IMG/VR virus record: IMGVR_UViG_3300033062_002302 | Strand: one strand, 5' to 3' | Source of the DNA: a virus | Lineage: Duplodnaviria; Caudoviricetes | Length of the DNA stretch: 64,000 bases | In this document: piece by piece, positions 2,846-21,522 of the stretch | Position numbering within the stretch: position 1 is the stretch's first letter | How the letters are laid out: every line of letters begins with the position of its first letter | Program-made: the position numbers and the translations under genes | The notes under the pieces: generated by a model | The model's database searches: none | Seen by the model: the letters and a program-made list of their open reading frames with translations, nothing else | What the model was told of the DNA's origin: nothing

Positions 2846-5800
2846 ATGGTTGTAGTTAGATCTTTAAATGAAATTATATTAAGTCTAATTGACTTCTATC
2901 GAATTGCTCAGCCAAATTTAGATACTAAGCCAGCAACCGTAGCTCGGGATCTTTTAATTGATGCGCCTTCTAATCAGCTCGCTCTTCTTTATGATCAAAT
3001 CTCTCAAGTCTCAACTCAGCAATCATTACAGCTAGTTACAGGATCTGACCTAGATAAATTAGCCAAAAATTTTGGTATTACTCGCAAATCAGCTACGGCT
3101 TCCTCTGGAGTTGCTTTAATTACTTTTAGTTCAATTCCTGCAACGATTGGGATTGGGCGCGGTGACATTGTAACTGCGGCTAATGGAATTTCGTATTCTG
3201 TTGTTAATGGCATTTCTGTAAGTCCAACCAACATTAATTTTTATCGTTCTACTGCAACGAAATTTAGAAATGATTTAGATTTCGTTGGAATTACAGATCA
3301 ATTTGCAGTTGAGGTTACGGTTCAATCAACAACTCCTGGGACTCAAGGAAATATTGGCAAATATAGCTTGAACAGAACGACTACTCCTGGAGCGAGTAAT
3401 GTAACCAATACTAGTTCTTTCTTGGGTGGAAACAATCAAGAGGATGATGCGACTTTTCGAAATAGAGTCTTATCTGTCTTTAGTGGCTCCAGCATTGGAA
3501 CGGCGTTAGGATATCGAAATTTAGCTTTGTCTACGACAGGGGTAACAGATGCCTTTGTAGTTGAGCCAGGCAACCCGCTAATGACCCGCGATGGCTCGGT
3601 CGTCTCCGAGGATGCTTCAGGCAATTTGACGGTCATATCGGAAGGTACAGGTGGCAAGGTTGACATCGTTATCCTGGGAACAGATTTGGTTGAGAATACG
3701 GATAGCTTTATCTATAGAGATAAGAGCAATAAGAATGACCCAACAGATCCAAAGAATACGGTTGTTTTAGGTCAAATTACAGGCGATGAAAATAAAACAA
3801 TTAATAGAAGAAGAATTGACAATATTAAAGCCGGAACTCTTCCATCTCAACCTGTTGATTCTATTATTCAGGTTAGCGGCTCGGGGAGCGGGTCCAACTT
3901 TAAAGAACAAACAATTGATTCTTTTGGAAGAGTTTCTGGAAACTACAAGCTAGTTAAAGATACAGGTTCTTTTGCGGGTAGTCCATTTGGTTTTGATAGC
4001 TTTATTTGGACTTCAGACCGCATTTCTCTCTTTGAAGAAGATAGAATTAAGGGTAAATTTAACGGGCAAGATGCCGTGACATTTTCAGATGTTTCTGAAA
4101 TTCCAATTATTCAACAAAATATTTCGATTACAAATGAAAATAGCACGGTTTTAAATTCAGACCGTTCTCTTATTCAATTACTTCATTTTCCAGCCAAGAC
4201 GGCAACTCGTGTTTTCAATAGTACAACAGGTGAACGGTATACAGTTTTAAATCAAAATCCAAATGGCTCTGGAACAACCAATACTTCTGGGGTTATTAAA
4301 ATCTCAGGAAATACCCTTCCATCTCAGAGCGATGTTCTTCAAGTAGATTATACTTGGGTTCTAACTTTCGACCAGTTTACAGATTATGATGGTAGGTTCT
4401 TTACTGATAATTTAAGAGAAGTAACAGATAGCATTGATTGGGGTTATTCTAATTTAATTAGAGATGAAGAAGTTATGCTGTCTCAAAATGATGCTGGAAC
4501 TTATTATGTCGGAAATACGACCTTACCAATTGGAGCTATTTTAACAGTAAACTCTTATGAAGAAATTGGCGGCGTCGTTAGCCAAGTTACTTCTGGAACT
4601 TATACTGGACGTTTAAGCGTTGTCATTACTAATTTAATTAATACTACAACTTCAATAGATCATGTTTTATTTAGAAATACGAATGTAGAGTTATTTAAAA
4701 CTTCTGCTAATGATGGGTTATTTACTAATGCTAGTATTGTTGTTGGAATTGATATTCAATATACAACGACGATTATTTTACCCAGTGATACGAAGGCGTC
4801 GATTGGCGATACAGTTACAGTAATTAAAAATTCAAAAGATACTTTTAATGTTACTGGATCTGTTGGAAACTTTAATGGCAATCAAGTAACGGTTCCTTTA
4901 ACTAATTTTAGCACCACCCCAGATACATTGACGGCTAAAATAAATTACATTGCTAATGTTCAGGATATTATATCGACTGGCATTACAAGCATGCCAGTGA
5001 GCCGAGTTGGAAATGGCTTTGGGACTAATTCTAGCATTGGCTTTAATAATGTCAATATTGCAAACGTTGCCAGGCGAGAAAATCAAGTCGTTCAAAAAAA
5101 CACGAGCAATCAGTTCTATATTGAATTAAATGCGGCAAGCGTTGATGTTAGCTTATCCTCTCTTAAGATCTTGACGGTTATTAGACTTTCAGATATTAAA
5201 GAGCTTTGGAATCAAGATAATGCTGGAACTATTGAAATAGGAACTAGTGGAAATTATCAGTTAATCTTTACTGGATTTAACACTCCAGCTATTGCAGATA
5301 AAGTTTTAGTTATCTATTATGCTGAAGACGTTAAAAGATTTCAACCATTTACATTTTCTAATGATGTTTTTAGCCGAGATTTTGGAACTCTTCAATATGA
5401 TATTACGACTAATAAGTTTAGCGTTCCATTGCATACCTTTATAGCTCAAACCGGATTAAGCTTTGAAATCTTAGAAAAAAATAGCGATGATGTTATTGCT
5501 TCTGGCTCAGATGGTTATATCACGACTCCATTCTCAAATTTATCTAAAGCTAACTTCAGCAGTTTAACTGTTAATTTCGATACGCTGGTCGATGTTGATT
5601 TAAGTCCGATTGATATTACTTCAAAAAGAATTAGAATCTTTAATTCAATTAATATAAATAACAATAATTATTATGAAATTTCAAGCTATAATGAAAATAG
5701 CAATATTTTTGTTATATCAAATGATTTTAGTAAAATTAATAAGAAACAAATCAGTGTAATTAGAGTTCTTGATGGAAAAGAATTATGGTCTGATACTGGA

Positions 5801-6958
5801 ACAATTGACGTAGATAACAACCTTCTTTTGTTTACAAAGACATCTGCCGCTTTAGCGGGCGATGATGTTATGGTTTTAACTTATGACTATGAAACCATTA
5901 AACAATCTCCAACCAAGCTTATTTTGACGGTTGTTGACTCGACGGCAAATACTGGAACCATTTCGGTTAATGGAACGACAATTACGAAGGCGAAAGATGT
6001 TTTATTCTCGGCAACTTCAACTAGTTTGAAGCAAAATTTATTTGAGGCTATTAGAAAAGTATTAGGGCTGAATTCGAATTCGTCTATTCCGAGCACCATT
6101 AAATTAGTCAAGATTACAAAATTAGAAAGAGTTTCGACAGAAGGAGAAGTCGTTCTATTATCTCAAGCAAATTATGATTTGTTAGGATTAACAATTCAAG
6201 ATAATAGTTTTTACTCAGAAAATATTATTTCAAATACAGATTATAATAATTTAGAGTTTAGCCTTCCTTCAACTCAAAACAATGTTTTGAATTTAGACGC
6301 TCAGGTTAAAGCCGGAGATAAATTTAGAATTACCTTTTATTACTCTACGACTAATGATACTGAAAATGTTATTTTTACTAGAAATGGAACCTTATACACT
6401 AATAAAGCATTTGCTTTGATTGATAAAGTTTATATTTCTAGTGGATTTAATTCTTCTCAATCAACTAGAATTATATTAAGTAATTTCAATCAGCCTATTA
6501 CTGGTTCTAGGTATAAAGTTTTTTATGATTATATGGCTCCTAAGCAGAATGAAAGAATAATTATAAAATCAAATAACAATAGGTTGGTTTCAACCGTTAC
6601 TTTTAATGTAGAAACTAATAGACCAATAAATGCGGATGTTTTAATTAGACAAGCTAAACAAGTAGATATAGATGTTACTATGAATGTTGTTATTTCTGAT
6701 TCTTTTAAGAGTTCATCTGCTCTTGTCTTGCAAAATTTGAAAGATAAGCTAGTTACGGCAATTAATGCGAATGCATTAGGAACTGTTTTAGATTCATCTA
6801 GTTTAGTTAATGCGGCATTCTCAGTCGATGGGGTTGCAGGAGCTAGAATTATCTTCTTTAATAAGACAGGTTCTTTTGGTCAGGTTCTAAGTTTAACAGC
6901 TAAGGAAGATGAATATTTTTCAGCTAACTTAGTGACGGTAGCAGCAGAAACAAGATAA
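2846..6958 (+). CDS. baseplate J / gp6-like wedge protein with large insertion (1370 aa)
   Basis: N-terminal LDKLAKNFGITRK..A, GGNNQEDDATFRNR and SIGT motifs; C-terminal VDGV region typical of baseplate J. Confidence 0.85.
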   Translation: MVVVRSLNEIILSLIDFYRIAQPNLDTKPATVARDLLIDAPSNQLALLYDQISQVSTQQSLQLVTGSDLDKLAKNFGITRKSATASSGVALITFSSIPATIGIGRGDIVTAANGISYSVVNGISVSPTNINFYRSTATKFRNDLDFVGITDQFAVEVTVQSTTPGTQGNIGKYSLNRTTTPGASNVTNTSSFLGGNNQEDDATFRNRVLSVFSGSSIGTALGYRNLALSTTGVTDAFVVEPGNPLMTRDGSVVSEDASGNLTVISEGTGGKVDIVILGTDLVENTDSFIYRDKSNKNDPTDPKNTVVLGQITGDENKTINRRRIDNIKAGTLPSQPVDSIIQVSGSGSGSNFKEQTIDSFGRVSGNYKLVKDTGSFAGSPFGFDSFIWTSDRISLFEEDRIKGKFNGQDAVTFSDVSEIPIIQQNISITNENSTVLNSDRSLIQLLHFPAKTATRVFNSTTGERYTVLNQNPNGSGTTNTSGVIKISGNTLPSQSDVLQVDYTWVLTFDQFTDYDGRFFTDNLREVTDSIDWGYSNLIRDEEVMLSQNDAGTYYVGNTTLPIGAILTVNSYEEIGGVVSQVTSGTYTGRLSVVITNLINTTTSIDHVLFRNTNVELFKTSANDGLFTNASIVVGIDIQYTTTIILPSDTKASIGDTVTVIKNSKDTFNVTGSVGNFNGNQVTVPLTNFSTTPDTLTAKINYIANVQDIISTGITSMPVSRVGNGFGTNSSIGFNNVNIANVARRENQVVQKNTSNQFYIELNAASVDVSLSSLKILTVIRLSDIKELWNQDNAGTIEIGTSGNYQLIFTGFNTPAIADKVLVIYYAEDVKRFQPFTFSNDVFSRDFGTLQYDITTNKFSVPLHTFIAQTGLSFEILEKNSDDVIASGSDGYITTPFSNLSKANFSSLTVNFDTLVDVDLSPIDITSKRIRIFNSININNNNYYEISSYNENSNIFVISNDFSKINKKQISVIRVLDGKELWSDTGTIDVDNNLLLFTKTSAALAGDDVMVLTYDYETIKQSPTKLILTVVDSTANTGTISVNGTTITKAKDVLFSATSTSLKQNLFEAIRKVLGLNSNSSIPSTIKLVKITKLERVSTEGEVVLLSQANYDLLGLTIQDNSFYSENIISNTDYNNLEFSLPSTQNNVLNLDAQVKAGDKFRITFYYSTTNDTENVIFTRNGTLYTNKAFALIDKVYISSGFNSSQSTRIILSNFNQPITGSRYKVFYDYMAPKQNERIIIKSNNNRLVSTVTFNVETNRPINADVLIRQAKQVDIDVTMNVVISDSFKSSSALVLQNLKDKLVTAINANALGTVLDSSSLVNAAFSVDGVAGARIIFFNKTGSFGQVLSLTAKEDEYFSANLVTVAAETR

Positions 6959-9900
6959 TGGATAATCTAAGAATCATAGGAGTCGAAGTCATTGATAGCG
7001 TGACGCTCGTTGCTAAATTTAGCCATAAGCTAGATTCAAGCATCGGTGCATCTAATGTCACCATCACTTCGCAATTAGACAGTGTTCCTTCACCTAATGT
7101 TTTAAAGGCAGAAGTCAATAGCGAAACATTGGTGATTACTTGTCAGCCTATGACTCCGCAAGCGCCTTATTTTATTAAGTTTTTGTCATTGCCAGCCATT
7201 CCATTTAAATCTGTCAATGCAACAGCCATCATGTTAAATGATGACGTTAGCAATCAATATTATATTATTGGACCAATTGAAGCTGGTAATATAATTCAAG
7301 ATCTCTTAATAGACTACTTAAGAGAAACTCCTTTAAATGTAACAGATAATACGACTATTGTTAATAAAGTTCTTCAAAGCTATTCATTACTTTATTCTAA
7401 AGCTTTATATGATATCAAGCAATTAAAAAATGAAAATTATTTATCTTTTGATGTCTTGGATGAAGAAAAGACTCGTCAAGAAGGACCCTTTGATCGTCTC
7501 TTAGAAGAAGGCGCCTATCAAATAACAAGAGTTGGAAAAACTCCGACCGGATTCTCCGCTACTTTAGATTTTAATTTTGAAGAGTTCCCTGATTTTCCAG
7601 TTTCTCTTTTAAAAGAAGAAGTCTCAGAACTATTAAACATAGATTTTGAAGATAATGATAATACATTTAATATAAACACTTTTACTTTAAATGTGTCTAA
7701 GACAAATGTATCTAAGTTATTAAGTGTTATTTTTCATTATAATAACGGTCATTTAGATTACGAATATCCTATTGAAACATTGGGCTATCAAATAACCAAT
7801 TCTAAATATGATAAAGATTATGGTTTTAGCTATTTAGTGCTTTTAACAGATCAGTTTAGATTGAGTGAAGCTATTTTAAATGATCCTGATTTTTCAAATC
7901 AAAATATTTCATATGTAGAAGTAACTTATGAATATAGAAATTTGGGCAGAATTATTGATGAGGATTCCGTTACGGCTTCGACTATTTTAAGTGTTTCTAG
8001 GGAACCTTTACCTCCAATCATCAATATATTTAATTTAAAGCATGCGCCAATTGTTGATCAAAATGGAGATATTTATACAACTGGAGGCGCGACTTTTATT
8101 GATCCAAATGCTTATTTAACAACGGATAAGCATCCAGCATTTTTATATGAAATTGCATTTCGTCTTAATGCATTGCCTCGACGTCCTGGCGAATATTGCA
8201 TTGATTATGAAACTGGAACGGTTTATGTCTTTGGAGAAGATGCTGATAATGATGGAACGGGACCTCAACCACCACTCATTAGCTATGATTATCAATTTAC
8301 TTATGTCTCTCAGGTTGATTACGTTTATGACGCTTCCTCTGGAGATTTAGTTGCTTTACCTAATGGAAATTTAGTCTCTCAAGAAGGAGACATAACTTTT
8401 AATTATGAAGAAGTTTTAGTTCCTGATTTAGATTATCGAGCAACGGTTCATCAAGAAAATCTATCAGAAAGAATTGAAAATAAATTATTAGCCTTAAATG
8501 TTGTTAAAGCGGCTAATTCTCCAATTACTAATGTTTTTAGAATCTTTAATGAGACATCAGGGGAAATATACTCACCAATTCGTTGGAGTAATGATAAGAT
8601 ATATTTTTCTTATAATACCCCTCCTAATGTTTTACCTTTTACAGGAGAAAAAGTTTCTTTTAAAGATTCATTAAATGAAATATTATTCGTTAATCAAGAG
8701 CTAACAAATGGAAGTTCTATTCGAATCTTTAAATGTCTTTTATCTGATAATAATTTAGTTTCTGGCTCAGAAGATTGCTTGGCTTCATCAATTAATAATT
8801 CAATTAATTTATCTAATGATGATGTCTTTGTTAATCAAAAATGGTTTGACCCCTTTTTAACGGAAAGTCAAAACATTGATAAACTAGATGTGGTTGGTCA
8901 ATATAAAATTGATTATGCTAATGGAATTGTTTACGTTGCAGTTTCTCCAGGGCAATCTATTGAAATAGGAACGATTACTTATAAAACTAAACTAATTGAT
9001 CCTATTAATAGCCATGTCATTTCTGTAGATGATATTTATTATCAAACATCTATTTTAAATCCTAAAGATAAAACTTTTGAATACACTTCATTTGGAGAAG
9101 GATTTATTCAGCCATTAGATTTGGATGCTTCCGATGAAGGCTATCTAAATGAAACTGAGACTTCGCCTTATCAGGTTAATTCAACAAAGGTTGGAGCTTT
9201 TGTTGATGCTGTATTCGTTCCTGGCGTTTCTCAAAATATTAAGTTTATCCGTAGTCTTTATGAACTAAATGACCTTCAAAATAGTTATAGCCCCATTAAT
9301 TTTATGGAGGCTTGTACCTTTGATGGACGAGTCATTACAGTTTCTCCGATTGAAAAAACAGAATATAATATTGTTGAATATAATATTTCAGATGGTTATT
9401 TCATAACCATTAATTTGGCGCAACCATATTTATCTTCAAATATTGAATTTAATGTTTCTATTATTAGAAATTCAGATGCTCAAGAACTATGGGACAACTC
9501 TGGAATTGTTGTCGCTGGAGATCAAGTTAAGCTTAAATTATCTGGAGTCAACTCTCCAAATGCTGGAGATTCAGTTATTACAAGCTGGAGCTTGACGATT
9601 GATGATTTGTCTAGAATCATTGTTGATTATAATAAAGGAGATTTGTATATAGATTATACTTATCTTGCAGATGAAATTTTAATTAGCTATGAGTATGGGG
9701 AAAACCATATTGACTTTAGGCAATCAGAGTCAGTCTCTCCAGGTAGCACCTATTATGTAAGTTATAAGGTCGGAGCTTTACGCGATGCTTTGTTAAAGAA
9801 TTTTGGAAGCCTTGTTAATATTCCAGAGTTAAGCAATTTTGATATTAATCTTAATCGAGAAAGATATCGAGATTCATTGTCAGCCGCACTAGAGTCTTTT

Positions 9901-12900
9901 ATACAAGGTCCGACCATTACGGCAATTAAAAATATTGTTAATAAAATATCTCATATTGATCCTGAAATTGTCGAATCAGTCTTTCAAAATTGGTCATTAG
10001 GAACAAGCTTTTTAAATCCAAGAGGATTTGAAACGACCGGAAGCTTTGAGCTTTTGCCAGCCAAATATGGCAATGGAGCATTAATTAATGCCGAAGGTCA
10101 ATCTATTACATTACCAGTCTCTTCTAATTTAAGACTAGAAAAAGGGTCATTGGAATGTTGGGTCATTCCAGAATGGAATGGAATTGACAATGATGCGGAT
10201 ATAACATTCACTTTAACTAGAGATGGTTATCAGATTGAATCTAATTACATTTTTATTGGTTCAGCCGAATACCATCCTATTCTTAATTTAGATGGAACGT
10301 TTTCATTAAATAAATTAAGTAATGCGGCAGGCGCTCCTAATAAGAACAAAGACGGTATTTTCATTTATTATAATGATGATCCTGCTCAAGATTATAAGCG
10401 CTGGTATTTAGATGTTGTTGATGGGTATTCTTTTGGTCAAGTTGATGGCTATTCTACAACTTATTCTCTTAAAGTTAGTACGCCCAACGGAATGTTTTAT
10501 GATGTCAAGGCAATAGATAATCCTAAGCCTTCTAACATGAAGATTACGTCAGGAACAAGCAATATTTCAGTTTCTATTACGGATACAGCTCGATTCAATG
10601 AAGGCTTTACTTTCATCTCAGATCGAGAGCATTATCTCTTTGATTTTGGTGAAAAGAAAAATAAATGTCGGTTTTCTATTTACAAGGATCCAAGCGGATA
10701 TTTAAATTTTAGAATATTTGACCGAGATGGAGTCAGCTATTCTATCGGCGCAGATGTTTCTTCTTGGCAAGCTCATGAAAAGCACCATGTTGCAACCGCC
10801 TGGAAGTTAAACGACAAGCTTGAGAGAGATGAATTACATTTATTCATTGATGGTCAAGAAGTTCCAAATATTATTAGATATGGAACTAAAGTTAGCCCTT
10901 ATCTTCATGAAAGATATCGAACTATTAATCCAGAAGAGATAGCTGGATTTACTCCTAAGACTATTATTGGCTCTATTGATTTGGTAACTACTGCTGGAAG
11001 TCCAACTGTCACTTCTCTCATTAATTTTGACGCCTATGGAATACTAGCTGGCGACACTATTACGATTGATGAAGTAGGATTTAATCCATCTGGCTATTCA
11101 ATTTTAACAGTTGCAGGTCAAACTTTGACCTTGTCTAGCAACATGCCTCTATCTTTAGAAGACGCTAAGTTCTCAGTTAATAAAACAGATTTAACGCTGT
11201 TAACTGCGGTAGATATTTATCCTAATATTGCAGTTTCAACCATTTCATCTTTCTTAGATGGCTATGACTTAATAACTAACGACGGTTATGACGCCGTCAC
11301 TTCATCTTCTATTGACTTTGAATTATTTGATGTTATTCCAGGAGATCTATTACGAATCGATGATGGATACTATGAAAATCATTATACTATTTTAGATGTT
11401 GATGGATATACTTTAACTCTAAATGATGATATGCCAGCAACGAATTCTGGCTTAGATTTCTTTGTTTATCATAATGAAGATGTTGAAATTCCAGGACTAA
11501 GAGCCTTGAGACCATCATATTCTTTATCTAAAGATGGTTATTATAATAATGTTCTTTCACTTGAGAATGATGTTCAAGCTAATGATTTAATTTTAATTAA
11601 AACCTTAGGTTTAAATCATAAAAGAATTAAACAAAAATATTATGAATGGGGAGATGGATATAACAATGTTATTAAAACAACATTGCCCCCACCAATTTCA
11701 TTAAATGAAGTTAGTATTATTCATGGTATTCTATTAAATAAATTAGTGAATTCAAGCAATTCAACTCTCTTGGGAAATGACTTTACTTCATCTTCTTTCT
11801 CTGGAGAACAGCCATCTCTTTCAGATTCTGGAAGGACTCTAGCGGTTGATATTTCAAGTGGCAATCTAGATTTTAGCACTTCAGTTACCGTTACAATTAG
11901 TGGCGATGTTAACGGAAGTCCAACAAGCGAAGTATTAACTTTTACTCAAATAGAAAAAAAGAATACGTTAAATAAGTTTGAAACTATTACAGGTATTGTT
12001 GTTGCAGGTAAAGTTATTAATACTAATAGGTCTTATTTGGTTTTAAATGTTAAAGAGGCTTATTCTATTACTTACTCTGAAGGCAGCTCATTATATCCTG
12101 CCATTCGTTATTCTTATCAGTCTCGTGCAGGCATTGCTTTGACTGGACTTGGTGGAGCAACAGTTACAGACCTTGATGTCTTATTTAGCTCGACTGATAT
12201 TGGGAACTATCTTGTTATTGCAAGCCCAGGACCAGCTGCTGGAACTTATTTGATTTCTGGCGTTTCCGATGATAGAAACTCTATTAATATTGATGGGTAC
12301 ATTCCTCCTTTTAGCAATGGCATTTTTCAAATTTTAAATACAACTTCTTCTAGAAGCGGATTTCAAAATGGATTCTTCTTATTAGAAGAAGCTAATGACC
12401 CAGGAGTTCCATACCTATTAAAATCAGGAACTTATGAATTTGATTTTTATACCTGGACCAGTATTAAATTTAATCCAGTAAATTCATTAGCTTATGTTGG
12501 TTCGGATATTTTCAATAAAAACCATCTTAATGGAGTAATTGATGAATTAAAGATTAGTTCTAATCAATTGACAGATTTAAGAATTGGTGAAACCGCTCAA
12601 GTTAAACAAAACTACATTACTAAAGACTTCAATTCATTAAAAGAATTATCTTTTGATTCTAATACATTAGTTTTATCACACTTTGATTCATTTCCTTTTG
12701 TTAATGAAGCTGATTTTTATGTAATGTCAGAAGGAAAGAATTTTGTTCAGTCTGATGTTTCTGTTAATGATAATTTCTCTCAGAGTCTTGCAATTATTGA
12801 CAAGCCTTTTATCATTGATAATGATGGGGTCTTAGATACGCGCAAAGAAGGAACGATTGAATTTTGGGTTAATTCATTATATGATACTACGAACGATCCA

Positions 12901-14085
12901 ACTCATCGATTTTATTTTGATGCGGCAGGAATCAATTTAGAGACGGTCACGAGCCTTGATGATTCGACTCTTCAGATTTCAGGAAGAGCGGCTCAAGTTG
13001 TTTCAGTTAAACTAAAAAATGGCGATCAAAGAATTGATTACTTTGCTGGTGGAGCTATTGAAACTTCAACCGAGGGCGCTATTGCTGAAACAACAATGAG
13101 TATAACGGATAGTACCGTTAGCACTTCTAAGAAGATTCTTCAAGTAGTGACAGTTAAAATTGTTGGAGACCCAACCGGAACAGATTATTTTGCAGGCGGT
13201 GGAGTTAGTCAGGATGGTCGAACTATTTACCTAGCCAGAACTTTGCCTCAGTCTAGTTTGAATCTAATTGTTGTTTATAAATCAGCTGAATCAGGATCTA
13301 AAACCTTTAATAGTCAAGTTATTAGATTAAAGAAAAGACTACCAAATCAAAATAGCCAGGTTGTTGTAACTTATATCCCTAGCGGTCTTCATGGAGATAG
13401 AATGTCTATCTATAAAGATGAGTCTGGATATGTTAATTTCAACGTTAGAGCCAATGACTTCGATTATCAGGTCCGAGCCCCCATTTTCTGGTCAGCTAAT
13501 TCCTGGCATAGAATTAAAGCGACTTACTCTATAAATGGAGGAAGAAGCAACGATCAGCTACATCTTTTCATTGATGGGTATGAGTATAAAAACATTCTTT
13601 TTGGAACCGGACTCCTATTTGGAGACCCATATGTTGTTGGCTCTTCTTACTCTGGAACCTCGGCTATGATGGTTGATATTAAGTTTAAAGATGTTCCAAC
13701 GGAATTGTTTATAGGAACTGAATTTAATGGTAAAAATGCTGCTAATGCCTTAATTGATAATTTAAGAATTAGCAATATCGCTCGTCCCTTGTTCGCTCCA
13801 TTTGGAGAATCAATAGATGTCAATTATTCTAGCAATTTAGACATTGTTTTTCCAGTAACAGAAGATTTATACACGACCTATCTGCTTGATTTTAATACCA
13901 TTTTGGCTAAAAATGACGATTTCGTTATGCTAAAAAATAAAAATTCAGGAATATTTGATTTTGAAGTTAATGTTTTTGATTCATTCGATTTAATCAAAGA
14001 TAATAATAGAGTCAAAGAGATATTAGAGGTCTTATTAAAAGCCTTAAAACCTGCTAATAGTCGTATTTTTATTAAGTATGAATAA
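6958..14085 (+). CDS. giant baseplate wedge protein (P2 gpI/T4 gp7-like) with LamG/ConA-like domains (2375 aa)
   Basis: Follows baseplate J; YRDSL..GPT..AI motif and C-terminal LKPAN; LamG motifs GSLECW, HHVATAW, LFIDG, IDELKIS, GTIEFW, IDNLRIS. Confidence 0.7.
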   Translation: MDNLRIIGVEVIDSVTLVAKFSHKLDSSIGASNVTITSQLDSVPSPNVLKAEVNSETLVITCQPMTPQAPYFIKFLSLPAIPFKSVNATAIMLNDDVSNQYYIIGPIEAGNIIQDLLIDYLRETPLNVTDNTTIVNKVLQSYSLLYSKALYDIKQLKNENYLSFDVLDEEKTRQEGPFDRLLEEGAYQITRVGKTPTGFSATLDFNFEEFPDFPVSLLKEEVSELLNIDFEDNDNTFNINTFTLNVSKTNVSKLLSVIFHYNNGHLDYEYPIETLGYQITNSKYDKDYGFSYLVLLTDQFRLSEAILNDPDFSNQNISYVEVTYEYRNLGRIIDEDSVTASTILSVSREPLPPIINIFNLKHAPIVDQNGDIYTTGGATFIDPNAYLTTDKHPAFLYEIAFRLNALPRRPGEYCIDYETGTVYVFGEDADNDGTGPQPPLISYDYQFTYVSQVDYVYDASSGDLVALPNGNLVSQEGDITFNYEEVLVPDLDYRATVHQENLSERIENKLLALNVVKAANSPITNVFRIFNETSGEIYSPIRWSNDKIYFSYNTPPNVLPFTGEKVSFKDSLNEILFVNQELTNGSSIRIFKCLLSDNNLVSGSEDCLASSINNSINLSNDDVFVNQKWFDPFLTESQNIDKLDVVGQYKIDYANGIVYVAVSPGQSIEIGTITYKTKLIDPINSHVISVDDIYYQTSILNPKDKTFEYTSFGEGFIQPLDLDASDEGYLNETETSPYQVNSTKVGAFVDAVFVPGVSQNIKFIRSLYELNDLQNSYSPINFMEACTFDGRVITVSPIEKTEYNIVEYNISDGYFITINLAQPYLSSNIEFNVSIIRNSDAQELWDNSGIVVAGDQVKLKLSGVNSPNAGDSVITSWSLTIDDLSRIIVDYNKGDLYIDYTYLADEILISYEYGENHIDFRQSESVSPGSTYYVSYKVGALRDALLKNFGSLVNIPELSNFDINLNRERYRDSLSAALESFIQGPTITAIKNIVNKISHIDPEIVESVFQNWSLGTSFLNPRGFETTGSFELLPAKYGNGALINAEGQSITLPVSSNLRLEKGSLECWVIPEWNGIDNDADITFTLTRDGYQIESNYIFIGSAEYHPILNLDGTFSLNKLSNAAGAPNKNKDGIFIYYNDDPAQDYKRWYLDVVDGYSFGQVDGYSTTYSLKVSTPNGMFYDVKAIDNPKPSNMKITSGTSNISVSITDTARFNEGFTFISDREHYLFDFGEKKNKCRFSIYKDPSGYLNFRIFDRDGVSYSIGADVSSWQAHEKHHVATAWKLNDKLERDELHLFIDGQEVPNIIRYGTKVSPYLHERYRTINPEEIAGFTPKTIIGSIDLVTTAGSPTVTSLINFDAYGILAGDTITIDEVGFNPSGYSILTVAGQTLTLSSNMPLSLEDAKFSVNKTDLTLLTAVDIYPNIAVSTISSFLDGYDLITNDGYDAVTSSSIDFELFDVIPGDLLRIDDGYYENHYTILDVDGYTLTLNDDMPATNSGLDFFVYHNEDVEIPGLRALRPSYSLSKDGYYNNVLSLENDVQANDLILIKTLGLNHKRIKQKYYEWGDGYNNVIKTTLPPPISLNEVSIIHGILLNKLVNSSNSTLLGNDFTSSSFSGEQPSLSDSGRTLAVDISSGNLDFSTSVTVTISGDVNGSPTSEVLTFTQIEKKNTLNKFETITGIVVAGKVINTNRSYLVLNVKEAYSITYSEGSSLYPAIRYSYQSRAGIALTGLGGATVTDLDVLFSSTDIGNYLVIASPGPAAGTYLISGVSDDRNSINIDGYIPPFSNGIFQILNTTSSRSGFQNGFFLLEEANDPGVPYLLKSGTYEFDFYTWTSIKFNPVNSLAYVGSDIFNKNHLNGVIDELKISSNQLTDLRIGETAQVKQNYITKDFNSLKELSFDSNTLVLSHFDSFPFVNEADFYVMSEGKNFVQSDVSVNDNFSQSLAIIDKPFIIDNDGVLDTRKEGTIEFWVNSLYDTTNDPTHRFYFDAAGINLETVTSLDDSTLQISGRAAQVVSVKLKNGDQRIDYFAGGAIETSTEGAIAETTMSITDSTVSTSKKILQVVTVKIVGDPTGTDYFAGGGVSQDGRTIYLARTLPQSSLNLIVVYKSAESGSKTFNSQVIRLKKRLPNQNSQVVVTYIPSGLHGDRMSIYKDESGYVNFNVRANDFDYQVRAPIFWSANSWHRIKATYSINGGRSNDQLHLFIDGYEYKNILFGTGLLFGDPYVVGSSYSGTSAMMVDIKFKDVPTELFIGTEFNGKNAANALIDNLRISNIARPLFAPFGESIDVNYSSNLDIVFPVTEDLYTTYLLDFNTILAKNDDFVMLKNKNSGIFDFEVNVFDSFDLIKDNNRVKEILEVLLKALKPANSRIFIKYE

Positions 14086-14118
14086 TAGATATAATTTGAT
14101 ATATGATAAAGAGAGAAC

Positions 14119-17100
14119 ATGACTAAAAGAAGCCCTATTTCTGGTTTGCAGAATCTATATTCCGATGCGGAGCAGTTGGATGATTCTGATTTAACGGCAG
14201 AACAAAGTTATAATAATAGCATTCAAAATGCCATTATTAATAATCATGTTGGGATAGGTGTCTTACCAGAAGTTTTAAATCAAAACATCTTATTCGATTC
14301 TTTATTGGTTTCTGGCTTATTAGATGGAACTAATATTGCCCCGCAGGCTCAGCCCACCGATTCTAATCAGGGGAATCAGCTTGAAATTGAATTAAAAAAT
14401 TCAAAAGCGGCAGGTAAGAGAACCGTTAAAATAGCTATTATTGGTTTAGATTTTGAAAATAATCTTCAATATGATACTTTGGTTTTTAAAGCCAATGAAG
14501 TTCAAATAACCAAAAAGCATTATACGAATATACTTGCTATTTTCTTTAATGATTTTATTGGAACGACAATCCAATCTTTTAATTTGGGTGGTCAAGTTAT
14601 TATTAAAGAGGCTAAGCCATTTAGTCTTTCTAGAGACCCAATTATGGCAGCTCAAGATATCGAGCCCAATCTTTTTTGGCGAGATTTCTTTGTTAGCTCT
14701 GTTTCATCTTTAACAACTCTATTAACTAATTCGCTGCCACTTTATAATATTGATAATTTAAATATCAATACTGGATATAAAGAAAATAAAGTTTTAGAAG
14801 AAAATGATGTTACTACTCAAATTGGTCAAAAATTTCTAGCAACGACCAATAATATTCAAAAAATTTCATTATTATTATCTGTTCAAAATACCAATCCTGG
14901 CTTTGAAACGGACTTGGCTTGGGAAGGCGAGCTAGTTGTTAGCATTTTTCCTCTTCAATCGACCATTCAATGCTCGACTGATATTGTTCCAAATTTAGCT
15001 ATTGATTTTTCTCCATCTAATATTCCATTGGCTCAATTAAGCTTTGATTATGATAGTCTTCAAAGTCTTGGAACGACTCTTGATGGGAACCCTCAGCCAG
15101 TAGACTTTGTTTTTAGTAATACTCAAGTTGGAACTGGCAATGCTATTGTTCCAGGAAATTATTACGCTGTAACTTTAAAACGCTCTGGGTCAGCTAATAA
15201 ATGTGATATTTTAATAACGGCAGGAAGTAATATTAGCTCTGATTCTAGAGCAACAATGTTTACTGGAAGTGTTTGGGTTGATTTGCCAGACGATGATCTT
15301 TGGCATCGAGTCTTTACTGACGCAGCTAAGATTTCAGATGGTCAGGCATATGAAACTGGGCACGGAATTATTATTCCTAAAATTAATTTAGATTCAGAAA
15401 CGAATGCTCAAATTGATTATTCATTAGATGGAATTCAGTTTACTGGAACAGAATTATATACTGGCGTTGTTGCCGCCGAATTAGAGCAAAGCGTCCCAAT
15501 TCAGGATCAAAGAACCGGCAACCCGGTTAATTCTCGTCAGCAGTTCGTTCCCAAAGTTAAACTATTAAACCCAATAGATTTATCAAATCTTTCCAAGACG
15601 ACAGAGCCTTTTGTTGTTGGTCTTGTTGCAGATAAGAATAAAAAATCTTTTGAAGCTTCAAGCTCTGTTCTATCAGCCGGACTTCATTCTTGGACTTTCG
15701 TTAAAAACGAATTACAATTAAAAATCATTGATGATAGCACAGATGGATATCGATATGATTTAAATGTTAATGCTTTGGTAAACAATTTAGTAAATGGTGA
15801 TTTTACCAATGCTAAACTTATTCCAAACATTTCTGAGCCAAATACTTTTTATCGTGTAGCCAAAGCCGAATTATGCTCTATGATTTATGGAGATATTAAT
15901 GGTGATGGTGTTGTTGACGATGCTGATTTAGATCTTTATAATTTACTCTTAGGAATGGACCTTAATGTCTCTCCTCCGGCAATAAGCTCCATCTCAACAG
16001 ATGGATATGTTACGACTTATACAAATGGGTACCCATTCTATGCAGATCCTTTTGTTAATGACTTTACCGTTACTTTCCAGCTTGTTGATCCTGCAACTAA
16101 TTTAGTTGTCGCATCTGGAACTGACGGCATTTTAGTTGTTAATCCAAATGATGGTAGTTTAGCTACTTTTCAGAGCGCTTCAACTAATTTCTCAGCTATT
16201 ACCAATCTAATTAATTTAAAATTGGTAATTAGACTATCAACGAATGAATGTAATAATGGCGGTATTGAGATTACGAGCCTTAATACTTCTTCAAATTATA
16301 TTGTTAATTTAAGAAAAGTTCTATTAGATAGCGACAAAATATCTCAGATTTTAAGAGCAGATATCGATGGTGATTTTGAGATTACTGCAAATGACGGTTA
16401 TTATTTACAGAATTATATTTTAAAAGCTCCTCCATTTCCAGCGACAACTTCACCTGGGAATAAAATTGGAACATCATTTAATGTTCTTAAATTAAAGTTA
16501 GATCCATTCACCTATCAAGATGGGTATTTTACTCGGAATGACGATTTCTATCCAACCATCTCTAATCGTGGGACTGTTTTACATCCTATTCAAGATTTGT
16601 ATTTGGAAGATACTGGATTAGAAAATCATGACTTTAAAAATAACCCTATTACTTTTAATCTTGTTAAACAATTAACTTGGGAAGAAAGATTAATTTCAGT
16701 TGCAAGTAATGCTAGATTTGTTCCGACCATTTTTAGTTCTACATCTGGTCACGTTCATAACAGCTGTGAAATAGACGGTATTGTTTGTGATATTTATCCT
16801 CAGGGTCCAGAATTAGATCCAGGGACGATTAATGCTTTCGTTCCTAATAATCTTATTATTGGTGATGGTGGAGAGTTACAAAGACCAGATGGAAATCCAT
16901 ATAAAGTAGACTTTGAAGTTGGAACGATTGTCTTAGAAATTCCAGATGGAATTTTCGGAGAAGAGCGAACCTTAAATGTTTTTGATGACTTCGTTGCAGA
17001 TTATACTGGAAAAGGAATCACAAGGCTAGGCTTCCCGGCGCTTCGTTTTGCTGACTGTTCATTAGTTGAACAAGAGGCTTTACTTAATAATCAAGTTAGA

Positions 17101-17877
17101 TTCTCTGTTGCAGTTCAATCTTTTAGCCCAAATACTAATGGAACAGACTCAGATGGTTATTCAGGGGTTATCGTTGATGGTAAAATCGGCGTCTCCATGG
17201 ATTACGCAACTGGATTGTTAAGACTTAACTTCACGAACCTTTATGAAGATTCCGTTCTTCAGACTTTAAATACTAAAGTTCAAATTAACGTTTACCTTAA
17301 AAAAGGTGGGTTTAATAACTCTCCATTGTTTGTAGATTCGACCAAGGTTCAAAACTTATTAGAATTAATCAGCGTTTTCAATGAAAATAGCCCATTAGAA
17401 GGTTCAACCAATCACACTCAAGTTACTCAGCAAACGACGACAGAATGGAAAGATACGAGTTCTACTGATTATAGCGCTTCTGCTCCAAAGGCGTCTAAAC
17501 GCGAGAGGCGCCGTCAGTTTACGACCACTACTTCAACAGCCAATCAGGTTATTGAAGATGGCTATACGTTTGGCAATGTAGATTTCAGCTTATCAGATGA
17601 GGCGATTACGAGAGTCACCGCCTTGCTATTAGTTAAAAAATCCGGGACTGCATTTGGCGGTACCATTGAAATGAAGGCGGATTATATTAGAGAGGGAGCT
17701 GGACCCGTTTTAATTGGCGCCCCGACCATTACTTATAATTTGACTGGATCGACCTTGGACGGAACGACAGCTGATTTTAATATCAATGGAAATAAGATTG
17801 AGATTAGAGTTTCTCCTGAAAGCGCTGATATTTTGAATTGGCGAATCTTCCGGACTCAAAATGAAGGAATAGACTAA
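14119..17877 (+). CDS. baseplate/tail-fibre attachment virion protein with dockerin-like Ca-binding loops (1252 aa)
   Basis: N-terminal N-L-Y-x-D-x-E-x-L..DL..EQ.Y motif of baseplate-hinge proteins; GDINGDGVVDDAD and ADIDGDFEITAND loops. Confidence 0.6.
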   Translation: MTKRSPISGLQNLYSDAEQLDDSDLTAEQSYNNSIQNAIINNHVGIGVLPEVLNQNILFDSLLVSGLLDGTNIAPQAQPTDSNQGNQLEIELKNSKAAGKRTVKIAIIGLDFENNLQYDTLVFKANEVQITKKHYTNILAIFFNDFIGTTIQSFNLGGQVIIKEAKPFSLSRDPIMAAQDIEPNLFWRDFFVSSVSSLTTLLTNSLPLYNIDNLNINTGYKENKVLEENDVTTQIGQKFLATTNNIQKISLLLSVQNTNPGFETDLAWEGELVVSIFPLQSTIQCSTDIVPNLAIDFSPSNIPLAQLSFDYDSLQSLGTTLDGNPQPVDFVFSNTQVGTGNAIVPGNYYAVTLKRSGSANKCDILITAGSNISSDSRATMFTGSVWVDLPDDDLWHRVFTDAAKISDGQAYETGHGIIIPKINLDSETNAQIDYSLDGIQFTGTELYTGVVAAELEQSVPIQDQRTGNPVNSRQQFVPKVKLLNPIDLSNLSKTTEPFVVGLVADKNKKSFEASSSVLSAGLHSWTFVKNELQLKIIDDSTDGYRYDLNVNALVNNLVNGDFTNAKLIPNISEPNTFYRVAKAELCSMIYGDINGDGVVDDADLDLYNLLLGMDLNVSPPAISSISTDGYVTTYTNGYPFYADPFVNDFTVTFQLVDPATNLVVASGTDGILVVNPNDGSLATFQSASTNFSAITNLINLKLVIRLSTNECNNGGIEITSLNTSSNYIVNLRKVLLDSDKISQILRADIDGDFEITANDGYYLQNYILKAPPFPATTSPGNKIGTSFNVLKLKLDPFTYQDGYFTRNDDFYPTISNRGTVLHPIQDLYLEDTGLENHDFKNNPITFNLVKQLTWEERLISVASNARFVPTIFSSTSGHVHNSCEIDGIVCDIYPQGPELDPGTINAFVPNNLIIGDGGELQRPDGNPYKVDFEVGTIVLEIPDGIFGEERTLNVFDDFVADYTGKGITRLGFPALRFADCSLVEQEALLNNQVRFSVAVQSFSPNTNGTDSDGYSGVIVDGKIGVSMDYATGLLRLNFTNLYEDSVLQTLNTKVQINVYLKKGGFNNSPLFVDSTKVQNLLELISVFNENSPLEGSTNHTQVTQQTTTEWKDTSSTDYSASAPKASKRERRRQFTTTTSTANQVIEDGYTFGNVDFSLSDEAITRVTALLLVKKSGTAFGGTIEMKADYIREGAGPVLIGAPTITYNLTGSTLDGTTADFNINGNKIEIRVSPESADILNWRIFRTQNEGID

Positions 17878-17901: not shown

Positions 17902-19023
17902 ATGAAGATCTTAATACATCAATTTCTTGGCAAAAATCATAGTTGGAGCGCCGTAGGGTGGGGAACGGCTAATGCTTTAATTAACCAAGGACATGAAGTT
18001 GAATTATTTTCAACGGATGGAATTGAGCATATTCCAAATAATTTAAGAAAGCATGTGATTGGGCATGTCGAAGAGAATAAGCCTGGCAAAATCTTTGGAA
18101 GATTACCGGGAACTTATGATTGTCAGATTAGTTATACTGCTATGCGAAACTTTCAGAAGTATTTAAGCTTTGGAAATAAAAATAGATTTGGTATTTGGAC
18201 CTATGAATGGAATGGAAAAAATGTTCTTCCTTCTGGTTTTGCCAAAGCTTATAAGAATTGCGATTACTTATGTGCTCCATCTCAATTCTCTAAAGATATT
18301 TTTATCAATTCAGGAATTCCTGGAGATAAAGTTCATGTCATTCCTCATGGAATTGGCTCTGAATTTTCTGGAGAATCTAAAATTGATCTTAAAACAAATA
18401 AGAAATTTAAAATATTAGCTAATATAGCTCAAAACCATATAAGGAAGAATATAAATGGTTTATTAGAAGCATATGGAAAAGCATTTAATAAAAATGATGA
18501 TGTTATTTTAATATTAAAATCAAAATTCAAACCTGTTAAATATGGGTTTGAAGTGTCTCTTCAAGAAATTGTGAGTTCATTCAAGAAGAAATATCCCGAC
18601 CATGCTGAGTTAAAAATTTTTGAACAATTTGTTCCGGACATCTCCTCCTTATATAGGAGTGTGGATACCGTCTTCTCGCTTTCTCACTGCGAAGGATTTT
18701 TAATGCCTGGGCTTGAATCATTGGCTTCTGGAAAAATTGTCATTGCTCCTAATTGGGGCGGTCAGGTTGATTTTTTAAATGATTCCAATGCTCTTCTTGT
18801 TTCCGGGAAAGAGGCACGAGCCAACCCGGCAAGCATGTACTGGGAATCAAAACAAAATGCAATTTGGTTTGTCCCGGATATAGAGGATGCAGCCAGCAAA
18901 TTAAGGTACGCTTACGATAATTTTATCTCTTTAAATGAGAGCGTCGAAAGCCAAAGAGAAGCTATATTAAAAAAATATAGTTGGGAATCCATCACAACTC
19001 AAATGTTGAATTTAACCAAATGA
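17902..19023 (+). CDS. GT-B glycosyltransferase (GT4-like)
   Basis: RKN..LLEAY, SHCEGFLMPGLE (ExFGxxxxE-like) and YSWE motifs. Confidence 0.9.
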   Translation: MKILIHQFLGKNHSWSAVGWGTANALINQGHEVELFSTDGIEHIPNNLRKHVIGHVEENKPGKIFGRLPGTYDCQISYTAMRNFQKYLSFGNKNRFGIWTYEWNGKNVLPSGFAKAYKNCDYLCAPSQFSKDIFINSGIPGDKVHVIPHGIGSEFSGESKIDLKTNKKFKILANIAQNHIRKNINGLLEAYGKAFNKNDDVILILKSKFKPVKYGFEVSLQEIVSSFKKKYPDHAELKIFEQFVPDISSLYRSVDTVFSLSHCEGFLMPGLESLASGKIVIAPNWGGQVDFLNDSNALLVSGKEARANPASMYWESKQNAIWFVPDIEDAASKLRYAYDNFISLNESVESQREAILKKYSWESITTQMLNLTK

Positions 19024-19712
19024 TTTATGATTTAAGCATCGTTATTCCAGTCTTCAATAATTGGAGCTATACTAAAAATTGCATTAGTAATTTATTGAAA
19101 TTGCCTGAATCATTTGAAATCATTATTGTTGATAATGCCAGCTCTGATTTAACGAAAACCGAACTTTCTAAATTTGAAAGAGTTAAACATATTAGAAATG
19201 AAACTAATTTTGGCTTCGGAAAAGCAGTAAGTCAGGGCGTTCAAGCAGCGCAATCCAATCAGATTATGATTTTAAACAATGACATTAAATTTGGAAATGT
19301 CTTTCAGGATTGGTTTTTATCATTACCTCAAATTATCAAAGATAATAATAAGTTAATTGGACCAACGGCTGGATATGTGGATCCAGAGAATGAATTTAGT
19401 TTTGTTTATGAAACTTCTAATAAAGAAGATAAAATTAATTATATGAGTGGTTGGTGTTTGTCTGCTAATCGAGAGACCTGGGATAAATTAGAGACTGGAG
19501 ATGGTCCTTTTGATAGTAAGACTTTCTTTCTTTATTTTGAAGATACTGATTTATCATTTCGAGCCAAATCTCTTAACATTGATTTTATGCTGATTGATAC
19601 TCCTTTAAAACATATTGGAAAGCAGACTTCTAAGTTATTGAATATTAGCAAACATTATTCTGAATCAAAAGTTAAATTTTTAAATAAATGGAATAATAAG
19701 TATCCATTTTGA
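19020..19712 (+). CDS. GT2 glycosyltransferase
   Basis: LSIVIPVFN, IIVDNAS, N.GF, LNND and YFEDTDL motifs; start moved to ATG 19020, which overlaps the upstream stop (ATGA). Confidence 0.9.
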   Translation: MIYDLSIVIPVFNNWSYTKNCISNLLKLPESFEIIIVDNASSDLTKTELSKFERVKHIRNETNFGFGKAVSQGVQAAQSNQIMILNNDIKFGNVFQDWFLSLPQIIKDNNKLIGPTAGYVDPENEFSFVYETSNKEDKINYMSGWCLSANRETWDKLETGDGPFDSKTFFLYFEDTDLSFRAKSLNIDFMLIDTPLKHIGKQTSKLLNISKHYSESKVKFLNKWNNKYPF

Positions 19713-19723: not shown

Positions 19724-20689
19724 ATGTCATTATCAACCAAAATTATTATGTTTGTTCTTGCAGTCCTTCTGTTAATAGGGGGAGGTTTAATTGTTTTCAA
19801 GCAATTTGAGATTGCTCGACGTCAAGAGGCAATTGAAAAAGAAATGGTTGGTCAGAAAGAGTTGGCTGACGGAATTACTCGGGCTCTTGCTCAATATGCA
19901 ACCAAGCAGGACATTAATAATCTCGCTAAAGAAAATAATGTCAACATGAAAGTTATCCAAAATGACTTGGATAAGTTAAATGCTTCAATTATGGCAATCA
20001 ACGTTGTAACCTCGAAGAGTCAAGGGCAAGTTGTTAAAGGAGCTGGGTCAACTAATACGGTTCCTGGGACTGATGTTCCCCCGTTAGCTTTAACTTACCC
20101 AGATCCTTATAAATATCAACAAGATACTCAAGTCATTAAGCTTAATGAAAGCTTTGGAAACGTTAAAGTTCCAATAGGAGAAGTTTCTTTCTCGGCTTGG
20201 AAAGAAAAGCCATGGGATTATAATATTCCACCACGGGAATATAAGATGGTTACGGTTCTAGGAATGGATGAACAACAGCGTCAATATGCTTATAATAAAT
20301 TTACGATCAACGATCAAGAAGTTAAAATAGCCAATAGCACTTTTAAGCAAGAGTACCCGGAAGGAAAATTTAGTTTTTTCAATCCCAGGCTGTACATAGG
20401 AATGGATGCTGGTATAAACTTGAGGAGCGTTCGGGGCGAAGCCGTCCCAAATGTTAGCCTTCAACTAATGAGTTATGGAAAATATAAGAATAATCCCGAT
20501 TTATCCATTCTTCAAGTTGGCGCAGGCTATGGAATTGATGCCAAGCAAGTTTCGGGCTCATTAACGCCAATTATGTATAATGTTGGGCAACATATTCCTT
20601 TAATGAATAATTTATATATTGGACCGTCTGTTCAAGTTAATGCATCGGGAGATGTTGGGATTATGGGAAGCGCTAAGGTGGGGTTATAA
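19724..20689 (+). CDS. membrane-anchored protein: N-terminal TM helix, coiled coil, C-terminal amphipathic beta strands (spanin-like?)
   Basis: Hydrophobic residues 7-25, then a helical region, then alternating Gly/aromatic strands. Confidence 0.5.
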   Translation: MSLSTKIIMFVLAVLLLIGGGLIVFKQFEIARRQEAIEKEMVGQKELADGITRALAQYATKQDINNLAKENNVNMKVIQNDLDKLNASIMAINVVTSKSQGQVVKGAGSTNTVPGTDVPPLALTYPDPYKYQQDTQVIKLNESFGNVKVPIGEVSFSAWKEKPWDYNIPPREYKMVTVLGMDEQQRQYAYNKFTINDQEVKIANSTFKQEYPEGKFSFFNPRLYIGMDAGINLRSVRGEAVPNVSLQLMSYGKYKNNPDLSILQVGAGYGIDAKQVSGSLTPIMYNVGQHIPLMNNLYIGPSVQVNASGDVGIMGSAKVGL

Positions 20690-21522
20690 TGCTTAAAATA
20701 TTAACTTTAAATTGGAATGGGAAAGAAAAGTTAGAGAAACTTTACCCATCATTAATTAATGCTTTGGATGGTATTGATTATCAATATTTAATAAAAGATA
20801 ACGGCTCGGTTGATGAATCCGTTTCATTTATTAAGAGCCTTAATAATCCTAAGGTTAAAGTAATCGAGTATGGACATAATAGAGATAATTTTGCTCAGGG
20901 ATGTAATCTTTTATTCAAAGAATCAGATCCTAAAGATGATGATTTAATTCTTCTATTAAATAATGATGTCATTTTTAATGATAAAAAATCTATTCATAAT
21001 ATGATGAATATGTTTAAAGATCCAGAGGTTGGTCTCGTTGGCGCTAAATTAAAATTTGTTGGAACAAATCTAATTCAACATGGTGGAGTTGTTTTTAGTA
21101 AGAGCAATGGGCTTCCAATGCATTTTAAAGCTCATCAGCAGGATGATAAGTCAACTCAAAAGCATCGAGAGTTTCAAGCTGTAACAGGGGCTGTTTGGAT
21201 GACTACAGCAAGTCTTTACAATCAAATCTGTCAAACTAATAAATCAGGGCAGAATGGCTTGGATGAAGGTTTCTTTTGGTGTTTTGAAGATATTTCAGCT
21301 GGATTGTCTATAAAATATTCTCTTGGTAAAAAAGTTGTTTATTGCGGAACGACCGATATATTTCATGAAGAAAGCGCGACTCTGAAAAAGAACCCGGCAA
21401 ATAAGTTATTTATGAATCATAATATCAATCATTTTAGAACATTGTGGCGTGATAAATATCTTGTCGATGAAGAAGTCTTTGCTAAGAATGCAAATCATAA
21501 TGTGTATGAGATGGTAAAATGA
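20689..21522 (+). CDS. GT2 glycosyltransferase
   Basis: LNWNG, KDNGS, NFAQGCN, LLNND, QHGG, AVTGA, FED and HEESAT motifs (WbbL/rhamnosyltransferase-like). Confidence 0.9.
   Translation: MLKILTLNWNGKEKLEKLYPSLINALDGIDYQYLIKDNGSVDESVSFIKSLNNPKVKVIEYGHNRDNFAQGCNLLFKESDPKDDDLILLLNNDVIFNDKKSIHNMMNMFKDPEVGLVGAKLKFVGTNLIQHGGVVFSKSNGLPMHFKAHQQDDKSTQKHREFQAVTGAVWMTTASLYNQICQTNKSGQNGLDEGFFWCFEDISAGLSIKYSLGKKVVYCGTTDIFHEESATLKKNPANKLFMNHNINHFRTLWRDKYLVDEEVFAKNANHNVYEMVK

Follow-up and report, generated by a model that had tools for sequence, protein, structure and literature searches.

A tripeptide, Asp-Gly-Tyr (DGY), recurs in a giant tail protein encoded in a 64,000-nucleotide stretch of viral DNA (the window), which is part of the 239-kb IMG/VR virus record IMGVR_UViG_3300033062_002302 (Duplodnaviria; Caudoviricetes; CheckV completeness 56%). 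In this phage, four turns or loops of a duplicated β-barrel have been rewritten to exact Asp-Gly-Tyr, and in the family as a whole the motif is derived and has arisen again and again. The gene, identified from the open reading frame (ORF) list and its translation, lies at 6958–14085 on the + strand and encodes a protein of 2375 residues with 12 DGY (P0001). Its start overlaps the stop of an upstream Baseplate_J ORF (2846–6958, 1370 residues; PF04865, E 4.7e-18). The sole Pfam match of the 2375-residue protein is to Laminin_G_3 (PF13385; residues 2132–2235, E 7.9e-10, 39.5 bits against a curated cut-off of 27.6), a membership that concerns the whole protein and neither of its barrels. More than 434 homologues have near-equal length and are found on contigs as long as 490 kb, which points to a clade of huge phages; from gene order, we infer that the protein is a conserved, giant baseplate- or wedge-type component of this clade. 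Searches of a deposited-phage collection, with the 230-residue stretch discussed below or with the whole protein, gave no matches, nor did a scan of viral contigs with a single sequence. With an alignment as the query, the viral contigs yielded 175 relatives, and 80 of these were kept.

Two tandem barrels that differ in their turns

The preliminary description of this DNA had singled out positions 10975–11665, residues 1340–1569 of the protein, as an internal repeat pair in which DGY replaces ordinary β-turns in one copy. The stretch comprises two tandem β-barrel accessory domains of ~80–90 residues each, in the variable middle part of the baseplate protein. Barrel copy 1 (residues 1326–1414; 10933–11199, + strand) has the turns TAGS, DEVGF and VAGQ and no DGY; its strands occupy residues 7–95 of our structural model, with a predicted local distance difference test (pLDDT) score above 90. 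Barrel copy 2 (residues 1423–1504; 11224–11469, + strand) is a lineage-specific duplicate with four DGY. The repeat alignment holds, with a Smith-Waterman score of 114 between the copies, far above that of 500 shuffles (29.2 ± 5.2, maximum 53). The turn pairs TAGS/NDGY and VAGQ/VDGY align as proposed; the third pair, DEVG/DDGY, is found in an ungapped register, and the orthologues agree with it (IDEPGF versus IDDGYF). As the copies are only about half identical in DNA (~50%), the duplication is old and does not represent a template and variable repeat pair.

An AlphaFold model of residues 1320–1600, built on 53 sequences, has a mean pLDDT of 82.9, rising above 90 across both barrels. The strands of copy 1 (model residues 17–25, 31–33, 48–51, 61–67, 70–73 and 81–88) each have a counterpart in copy 2, shifted by a constant 96 residues, and the two barrels are thus predicted to share a fold whether or not they carry DGY. 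The motif is absent from copy 1 and from most orthologous versions of barrel 2, and the model strands superpose. Modelling and orthologues together support the earlier suggestion that DGY is dispensable for the barrel fold. Structural matches to barrel 2 have Z-scores of 7.4–8.3 and root mean square deviations of 2.3–2.6 Å over 71–72 residues, at 11–17% identity; the best (Z 8.3, 2.3–2.4 Å, 17% identity) falls within the range that the tool assigns to common arrangements. Barrel 2 superposes on accessory barrels of other phages, namely the Mystique tail tube insertion domain, the Solidus tailspike C-terminal domain and residues 490–565 of the lambda tail tip, but at 11–17% identity and Z of ~8, a common arrangement, this likeness indicates a fold class and not homology or function.

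Six DGY fall within about 135 residues (1434–1566), as previously described, all on the + strand. Orthologue counts given here and below refer to an alignment of 114 full-length orthologues and its maximum-likelihood tree; loop alignment is imprecise, which makes site counts approximate, the tree is star-like (total length 32.7 substitutions per site), and recombination could mimic recurrence. The first DGY, at residue 1434 (LDGYD; 11257–11265), opens copy 2 in a model strand at the domain boundary and has 16 carriers, at least 13 changes and a non-DGY root. Residue 1442 (11281–11289), in turn 1 of copy 2 opposite TAGS, lies between model strands 112–121 and 127–130; 15 orthologues carry DGY here, the alternatives being SGS, AGS and MGS. 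The DGY at residue 1469 (11362–11370), opposite DEVG, sits in a long loop (model residues 149–156) and has ~9 carriers and at least 8 changes. Opposite VAGQ, residue 1482 (11401–11409) occupies a tight hairpin with a two-residue model turn (164–165); SGN is the majority state, and five or six carriers are accompanied by 6 changes. Beyond the barrels, residue 1526 (11533–11541) lies in a hairpin of the next small β unit (model loop 207–211), with DGY in 56 of 114 orthologues, at least 20 changes and an ambiguous root, and residue 1566 (11653–11661) lies in a variable, insertion-rich loop modelled with a pLDDT below 50, with ~17 carriers and at least 14 changes. Four of the six, at residues 1442, 1469, 1482 and 1526, are therefore placed in turns or loops by the model.

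Only two DGY sites are invariant among the 114 orthologues, both in LamG strands outside this stretch. These are residue 1155, which with the following hairpin spans 10420–10455 (+ strand), and residue 2206 (13573–13581, + strand), which lies inside the Laminin_G_3 match. They are ancestral and probably structural. The hairpin after residue 1155 bears DGY in tandem, two copies here and one to seven among the orthologues, with seven in P0010; in the window as well as in P0010, P0042 and P0090, the tandem units mix three- and four-residue periods. A LamG swap of LFIDGQE for LFIDGYE had been taken as a further example of the change seen in the barrels. This did not survive comparison: residue 1298 (LFIDGQE) is never DGY in the 114 orthologues and is mostly DGF, and residue 2206 is DGY in all of them, so that the two represent fixed states of paralogous domains.

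DGY is enriched at the protein level

The 12 DGY of the 2375-residue protein start at residues 812, 1089, 1155, 1163, 1434, 1442, 1469, 1482, 1526, 1566, 1779 and 2206, compared with 0.63 expected from composition. For the six within 135 residues, 0.035 would be expected, a Poisson probability of the order of 1e-12 by our arithmetic. Six codon spellings are used across the 12 sites, which places the signal in the protein and not in the DNA, and an explanation by a DNA motif was rejected on this ground. The counts of the motif on the two strands, 27 versus 3, follow gene orientation.

The excess is specific to a subset of the genome. Ten proteins (8362 residues) contain 39 DGY against 2.0 expected, and the remaining 276 ORFs contain 17 against 9.9; DGY is thus confined to about ten outer tail proteins. 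Within the 2375-residue protein, the N-terminal 800 residues are almost free of the motif, and hot zones are found at residues 800–900, 1000–1830 and 2200–2240. The same enrichment is seen across the orthologues, which together contain 908 DGY versus 59 expected. DGY occurs in 123 alignment columns, the most of all 8000 tripeptides, though for tripeptides rich in S, T and I the expected frequency is three to four times that of DGY.

Asp and Tyr are gained and lost together in loops

The orthologues show that D and Y appear and disappear jointly on either side of the central glycine, and that the motif is selected as a unit on loops. Tyrosine follows DG in 45% of cases, as opposed to 3% after NG and 10% after SG. 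NGY occurs 53 times and DGY 908 times, although the dipeptides NG (1679) and DG (1999) are nearly equally common. Among variable sites with a central glycine, DGY accounts for 639 instances, DG with another third residue for 221, GY with another first residue for 139 and neither for 1312, giving a site-stratified odds ratio of 88 for D with Y. EGY and DGW are rare, and so is DGF, whose 97 occurrences fall mostly (~67) at the fixed LamG site, residue 1298. Around DGY, we found no preference for flanking residues, other than echoes of DGYs that lie three to four residues off, and an extended sequon was rejected for this reason.

Most variable DGY columns (85%) lie within three columns of an indel, against a background of 29%, and 45 of the 121 are themselves insertion columns. 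At variable sites, G, D, N and S are over-represented among the alternatives and F, W, I, L and R under-represented, which indicates that the tyrosine replaces polar loop residues and not the core. Glycine is already the majority residue at the centre of 29 of 76 occupied sites. The proposal that DGY marks surface loops is thus supported indirectly, by turn and loop positions assigned with DSSP, proximity to indels and polar alternatives; residue 1434 lies in a strand.

The DGY turns of copy 2 are derived

The DGYs of copy 2 in this phage are minority states, carried by 16, 15, ~9 and 5 of the 114 orthologues in sequence order. The maximum-likelihood tree places a non-DGY state at the root for all four sites. 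Carriers are scattered on the tree, with 6–25 per site that require 6–18 changes; at residue 1482, 6 carriers require 6 changes. Barrel copy 1 is without any DGY in 104 of the 114 orthologues. Copy 2 has at least one in 50, and the number of orthologues with zero to four DGY in this barrel is 64, 29, 15, 5 and 1, the phage studied here being the only one with four. Where copy 2 is unmodified, its majority turns, TSGS and VSGN, match those of copy 1 (TAGS and VNGN or INGQ).

Fifteen distant loci have a single barrel, equivalent to copy 1, and none of the three turns in these barrels is DGY; copy 2 therefore arose later, by duplication, and its DGYs are later still. The single-barrel loci are L053, L062, L064–L066, L068–L071, L073, L074, L076–L078 and L081, with the barrel around 13900–14600 in each and at ~7931–8506 in L081. 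One of them, L068, is otherwise close to the two-barrel clade and may reflect loss of a copy or recombination. At a further locus (L063:9983–19343), the orthologue of the 2375-residue protein is split into ORFs of 1254 and 1063 residues around an inserted 739-residue ORF without DGY.

Of the four DGYs of copy 2, each of the nearest relatives (68% identity) has a different subset. In P0008, the DGY at the turn of residue 1482 is one residue out of register (VNDGYL), which argues for an independent origin. Taken together, the non-DGY root, the 6–18 changes per site, the shifted register and the single-barrel outgroup without DGY at the three turns uphold the view that the motif was gained repeatedly. 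Turnover is nevertheless not fast. In 11 pairs of orthologues at 76–97% identity, 58 DGY sites are shared and 6 are discordant, a stability that speaks for equilibrium and not flicker. We rejected very fast turnover, as close pairs share almost all sites and the changes are spread over 32.7 substitutions per site. DGY is best described as being held at many loop sites at an equilibrium frequency that is both high and stable.

Other DGY-bearing proteins and neighbouring genes

The downstream neighbour of the 2375-residue protein (14119–17877, + strand; 1252 residues) contains 6 DGY versus 0.21 expected, and its orthologues in related loci contain 0–13 each. It also has two dockerin- or EF-hand-like calcium-loop motifs, DINGDGVVDDADL (15892–15930) and DIDGDFEITANDGYY (16360–16404), the second of which runs directly into a DGY. 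A fibre-like protein of 367 residues with three repeats of ~52 residues was located at 42713–43816 (+ strand) by a six-frame peptide search and translation. Copy 1 of its repeat reads PTSGQVL, copy 2 PNDGYIL and copy 3 PDDGYIL, giving 2 DGY against 0.09 expected. The fibre-repeat swap reported in the preliminary description therefore exists, in this ORF and not in the neighbouring 1252-residue one. The DGY content of tail proteins varies between loci: L030/L042, L029 and L054 have few DGY in four adjacent tail proteins (for example 2, 0, 2 and 0), where relatives have 12–20.

The tail genes are followed, in this phage as in almost every relative, by a cluster encoding a GT4, a GT2, a 321-residue protein, another GT2 and an RmlB-type dehydratase. 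The dehydratase gene (21519–23618) is interrupted by an insert of ~330 residues that scores weakly as an intein (31.3 bits, short of the curated cut-off of 35.8), and a TubZ/PhuZ-like tubulin gene (23645–24976), present across many related loci at 46–70% identity, directly follows the cluster. Further downstream, a LAGLIDADG insert lies inside the large subunit of ribonucleotide reductase (32848–35571). A conserved block at 46203–49901 comprises an FAD-oxidoreductase, a small ORF, an exonuclease, a GT-B-like gene and a 204-residue ORF. The same block is found at L064:19835–24970, where it directly follows the homologue of the 1252-residue protein, in place of the GT4/GT2 cluster.

A candidate surface tag read in trans

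How might an exact tripeptide come to be re-created at so many loops of one set of proteins? We propose, with a probability of roughly 0.4, that DGY serves as a minimal tag on the surface and is under selection because it is recognized in trans by a partner, which would most likely be an enzyme that modifies the exposed tyrosine. Attachment of a sugar is the leading candidate for such a modification, though the transferases encoded next to the tail genes need not be responsible. Candidate genes for the enzyme in the window lie at 17902–19023, 18981–19712, 19724–20689, 20689–21522, 48355–49290 and 49287–49901. Copy 2 may tolerate and accumulate tags as the more exposed and less constrained of the two duplicates. 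The pattern in the orthologues is that expected of a sequon, a short, exact and position-independent motif: the odds ratio of 88, the absence of flanking preference, the indel-prone loops and the distribution over about ten tail proteins all fit. The variation from one to seven tandem copies in a single hairpin resembles a dose effect, which we count in favour of a tag that is read. In its narrower form, DGY would be the acceptor signal of a previously undescribed, tyrosine-directed covalent modification on the outer tail surface of a clade of 400–490-kb phages; this we put forward more tentatively.

Several observations weigh against a tag read by such an enzyme. In the sampled loci, all of them fragments at 7–29% completeness, DGY load did not track the GT4/GT2 cluster or the GT-B gene. 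L030/L042, with 2, 0, 2 and 0 DGY in four tail proteins, and L029, with 3, 2, 0 and 0, are DGY-poor and have retained the GT4/GT2 cluster; no homologue of GT4 is present in the 76.6-kb fragment of L064, which is rich in DGY (13 and 9). A second GT-B gene is found in both the DGY-rich L064 and the DGY-poor L029. The DGY counts of the wedge protein and of the downstream 1252-residue type are weakly correlated (rho 0.28, p 0.03, uncorrected for relatedness). Lastly, a glycan-binding turn of Asp plus Tyr would also explain the coupling of D and Y and the tandem arrays.

Alternative explanations

The last point describes the closest competitor, a possible though less likely explanation, in which DGY is itself a minimal adhesive or sugar-binding turn. 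Here the carboxylate of Asp and the ring of Tyr, positioned by the glycine turn, would make weak contacts with a host surface polysaccharide, with avidity arising from many copies. Pairs of an acid and an aromatic residue are the usual sugar-binding chemistry of lectins. The restriction of the motif to loops of outer tail, baseplate and fibre proteins, the requirement for D and Y together and the variable number of tandem copies, as an additive effect would produce, are consistent with adhesion. So too are the LamG domains, of lectin type, in the 2375-residue protein and the lack of any enzyme gene that co-varies with DGY load in our sample. Yet binding loops usually accept near-equivalents, and NGY, EGY, DGF and DGW are rare; no flanking context is present that would shape a pocket; and the DGYs of barrel 2 show no clear co-occurrence beyond relatedness, as seen from the distribution of 64, 29, 15, 5 and 1 orthologues over zero to four copies. 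The ligand, moreover, is hypothetical. We favour a tag for a modifying enzyme over direct adhesion, leaning slightly towards a reader because the motif is exact and independent of context.

An unlikely alternative is that DGY is merely a favoured structure for exposed hairpins in long-lived virions, for reasons of turn geometry, solubility or resistance to damage, with no partner or ligand. The glycine majority at 29 of 76 occupied sites would agree with this, as would the two invariant DGYs, which lie in LamG strands whose DG pair is characteristic of the family. D/G/Y-rich repeats of period 4 are also common in bacterial proteins, suggesting that the trio is intrinsically well tolerated. However, a structural preference would not demand D over N, given the similar numbers of NG (1679) and DG (1999), or Y over F. 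A β-turn driven by its dipeptide should freely accept N for D and F, W, T or V for Y; we observed instead 53 NGY against 908 DGY, and DGF is rare away from one fixed site. Nor would such a preference spare the N-terminal 800 residues and the other 276 ORFs. Seven tandem copies in a loop are not a β-turn, and 45 of the 121 variable sites are insertions and not replaced turns. A plain turn preference accounts neither for the strict requirement for D rather than N and Y rather than F, nor for the scarcity of the motif in other proteins and in the N-terminal third, nor for the tandem arrays.

A mutational or analytical artefact (a DNA motif, replication slippage, targeted hypermutation or misaligned loops) is very improbable and already largely excluded: slippage of 9–12-nucleotide units could extend the tandem arrays and the uncertain loop alignment makes site counts approximate, but the 12 sites use six codon spellings, the strand counts of 27 versus 3 follow the genes, the barrel copies are ~50% identical in DNA with no near-identical template repeat nearby, the excess of DGY is independent of any alignment, and its sites are stable among close relatives. 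A hypermutation target was rejected on the lack of a template repeat, the ~50% DNA identity of the barrels and the stability of DGY in close relatives. No long direct repeat of the kind that the target of a diversity-generating retroelement would have is present in 10500–12200, and no search for a reverse transcriptase was made.

Comparison with known systems

In a literature search, we found no published description of a DGY motif in phages or their tails. The nearest parallels to a tag read by a modifying enzyme come from virion glycosylation. Mycobacteriophages reportedly glycosylate their virions with virus-encoded transferases, and chloroviruses, likewise with virus-encoded transferases, attach glycans to their capsids at atypical sequons. 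As in these viruses, sugar-transferase genes lie beside structural genes in the window, and only outward-facing virion proteins would be marked. In contrast to them, the motif centres on Tyr and not on Ser, Thr or Asn, and its load did not follow the transferase cluster in our sample. Minimal tripeptide sequons such as N-x-S/T and the Asp-initial O-glycosylation motif of Bacteroidota work wherever they are exposed and are gained and lost freely in loops. DGY is similarly minimal and position-independent; however, these sequons have a different acceptor residue and motif, and the systems that use them act outside the cytoplasm.

Period-4 glycine repeats of the GxxxG type are known from FliH/YscL and Yae1. 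When three DGYx units were sought in genomes of bacteria and archaea, more than 120 matches were obtained, with ~0.3 expected by an estimate that assumes equal base frequencies. We rejected these matches as a clue to host or function, since they represent low-complexity D/G/Y repeats, period-4 glycine repeats of lipoproteins or spurious frames in GC-rich DNA. Tandem DGYx strings like those in the hairpin after residue 1155 are thus common in bacterial lipoproteins and low-complexity regions, but such repeats are long, regular and unrelated in sequence, whereas the phage DGYs are mostly single, on turns, and their arrays mix periods of 3 and 4. Five Bdellovibrionota/Oligoflexia metagenome-assembled genomes (L083, L111, L119, L130 and L149) encode predicted lipoproteins of 350–800 residues with 10–15 DGY in long period-4 Gly-Tyr-x-Asp repeats, unrelated to the phage protein.

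For glycans on tyrosine itself, there is precedent in prokaryotic S-layers. Tyrosine-linked glycans have been described on S-layer proteins of Paenibacillus alvei (SpaA) and Thermoanaerobacter (PMC2943079), and provide an example of a surface lattice protein glycosylated at exposed tyrosines. In that system, an oligosaccharyltransferase acts during secretion on two to four sites, and the text consulted (PMC2943079) reports no DGY motif. Phage tails, by contrast, assemble in the cytoplasm.

Implications

New here is an internal control, in which a paralogous pair and an outgroup show a motif added to a pre-existing fold. The two barrels constitute a natural experiment, with the same fold in the same protein bearing ordinary turns or DGY at aligned places, and relatives of the 2375-residue protein supply every intermediate combination. 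The comparison disposes of the simplest account of DGY, namely as a component of the fold. Barrel 2 is also a small (~80-residue), well-predicted domain for which natural SGN and SGS versions exist in relatives. If a covalent modification of the tyrosine proves true, the duplicated barrel would be a natural pair of tagged and untagged domains. Should DGY bind ligands directly, it would be among the smallest adhesive units described on a virion. If instead a reader enzyme exists, DGY would represent a new three-residue signal for decorating phage tails, one that would bear on host recognition, virion stability and surface presentation in huge phages and could give a compact tag for protein engineering.

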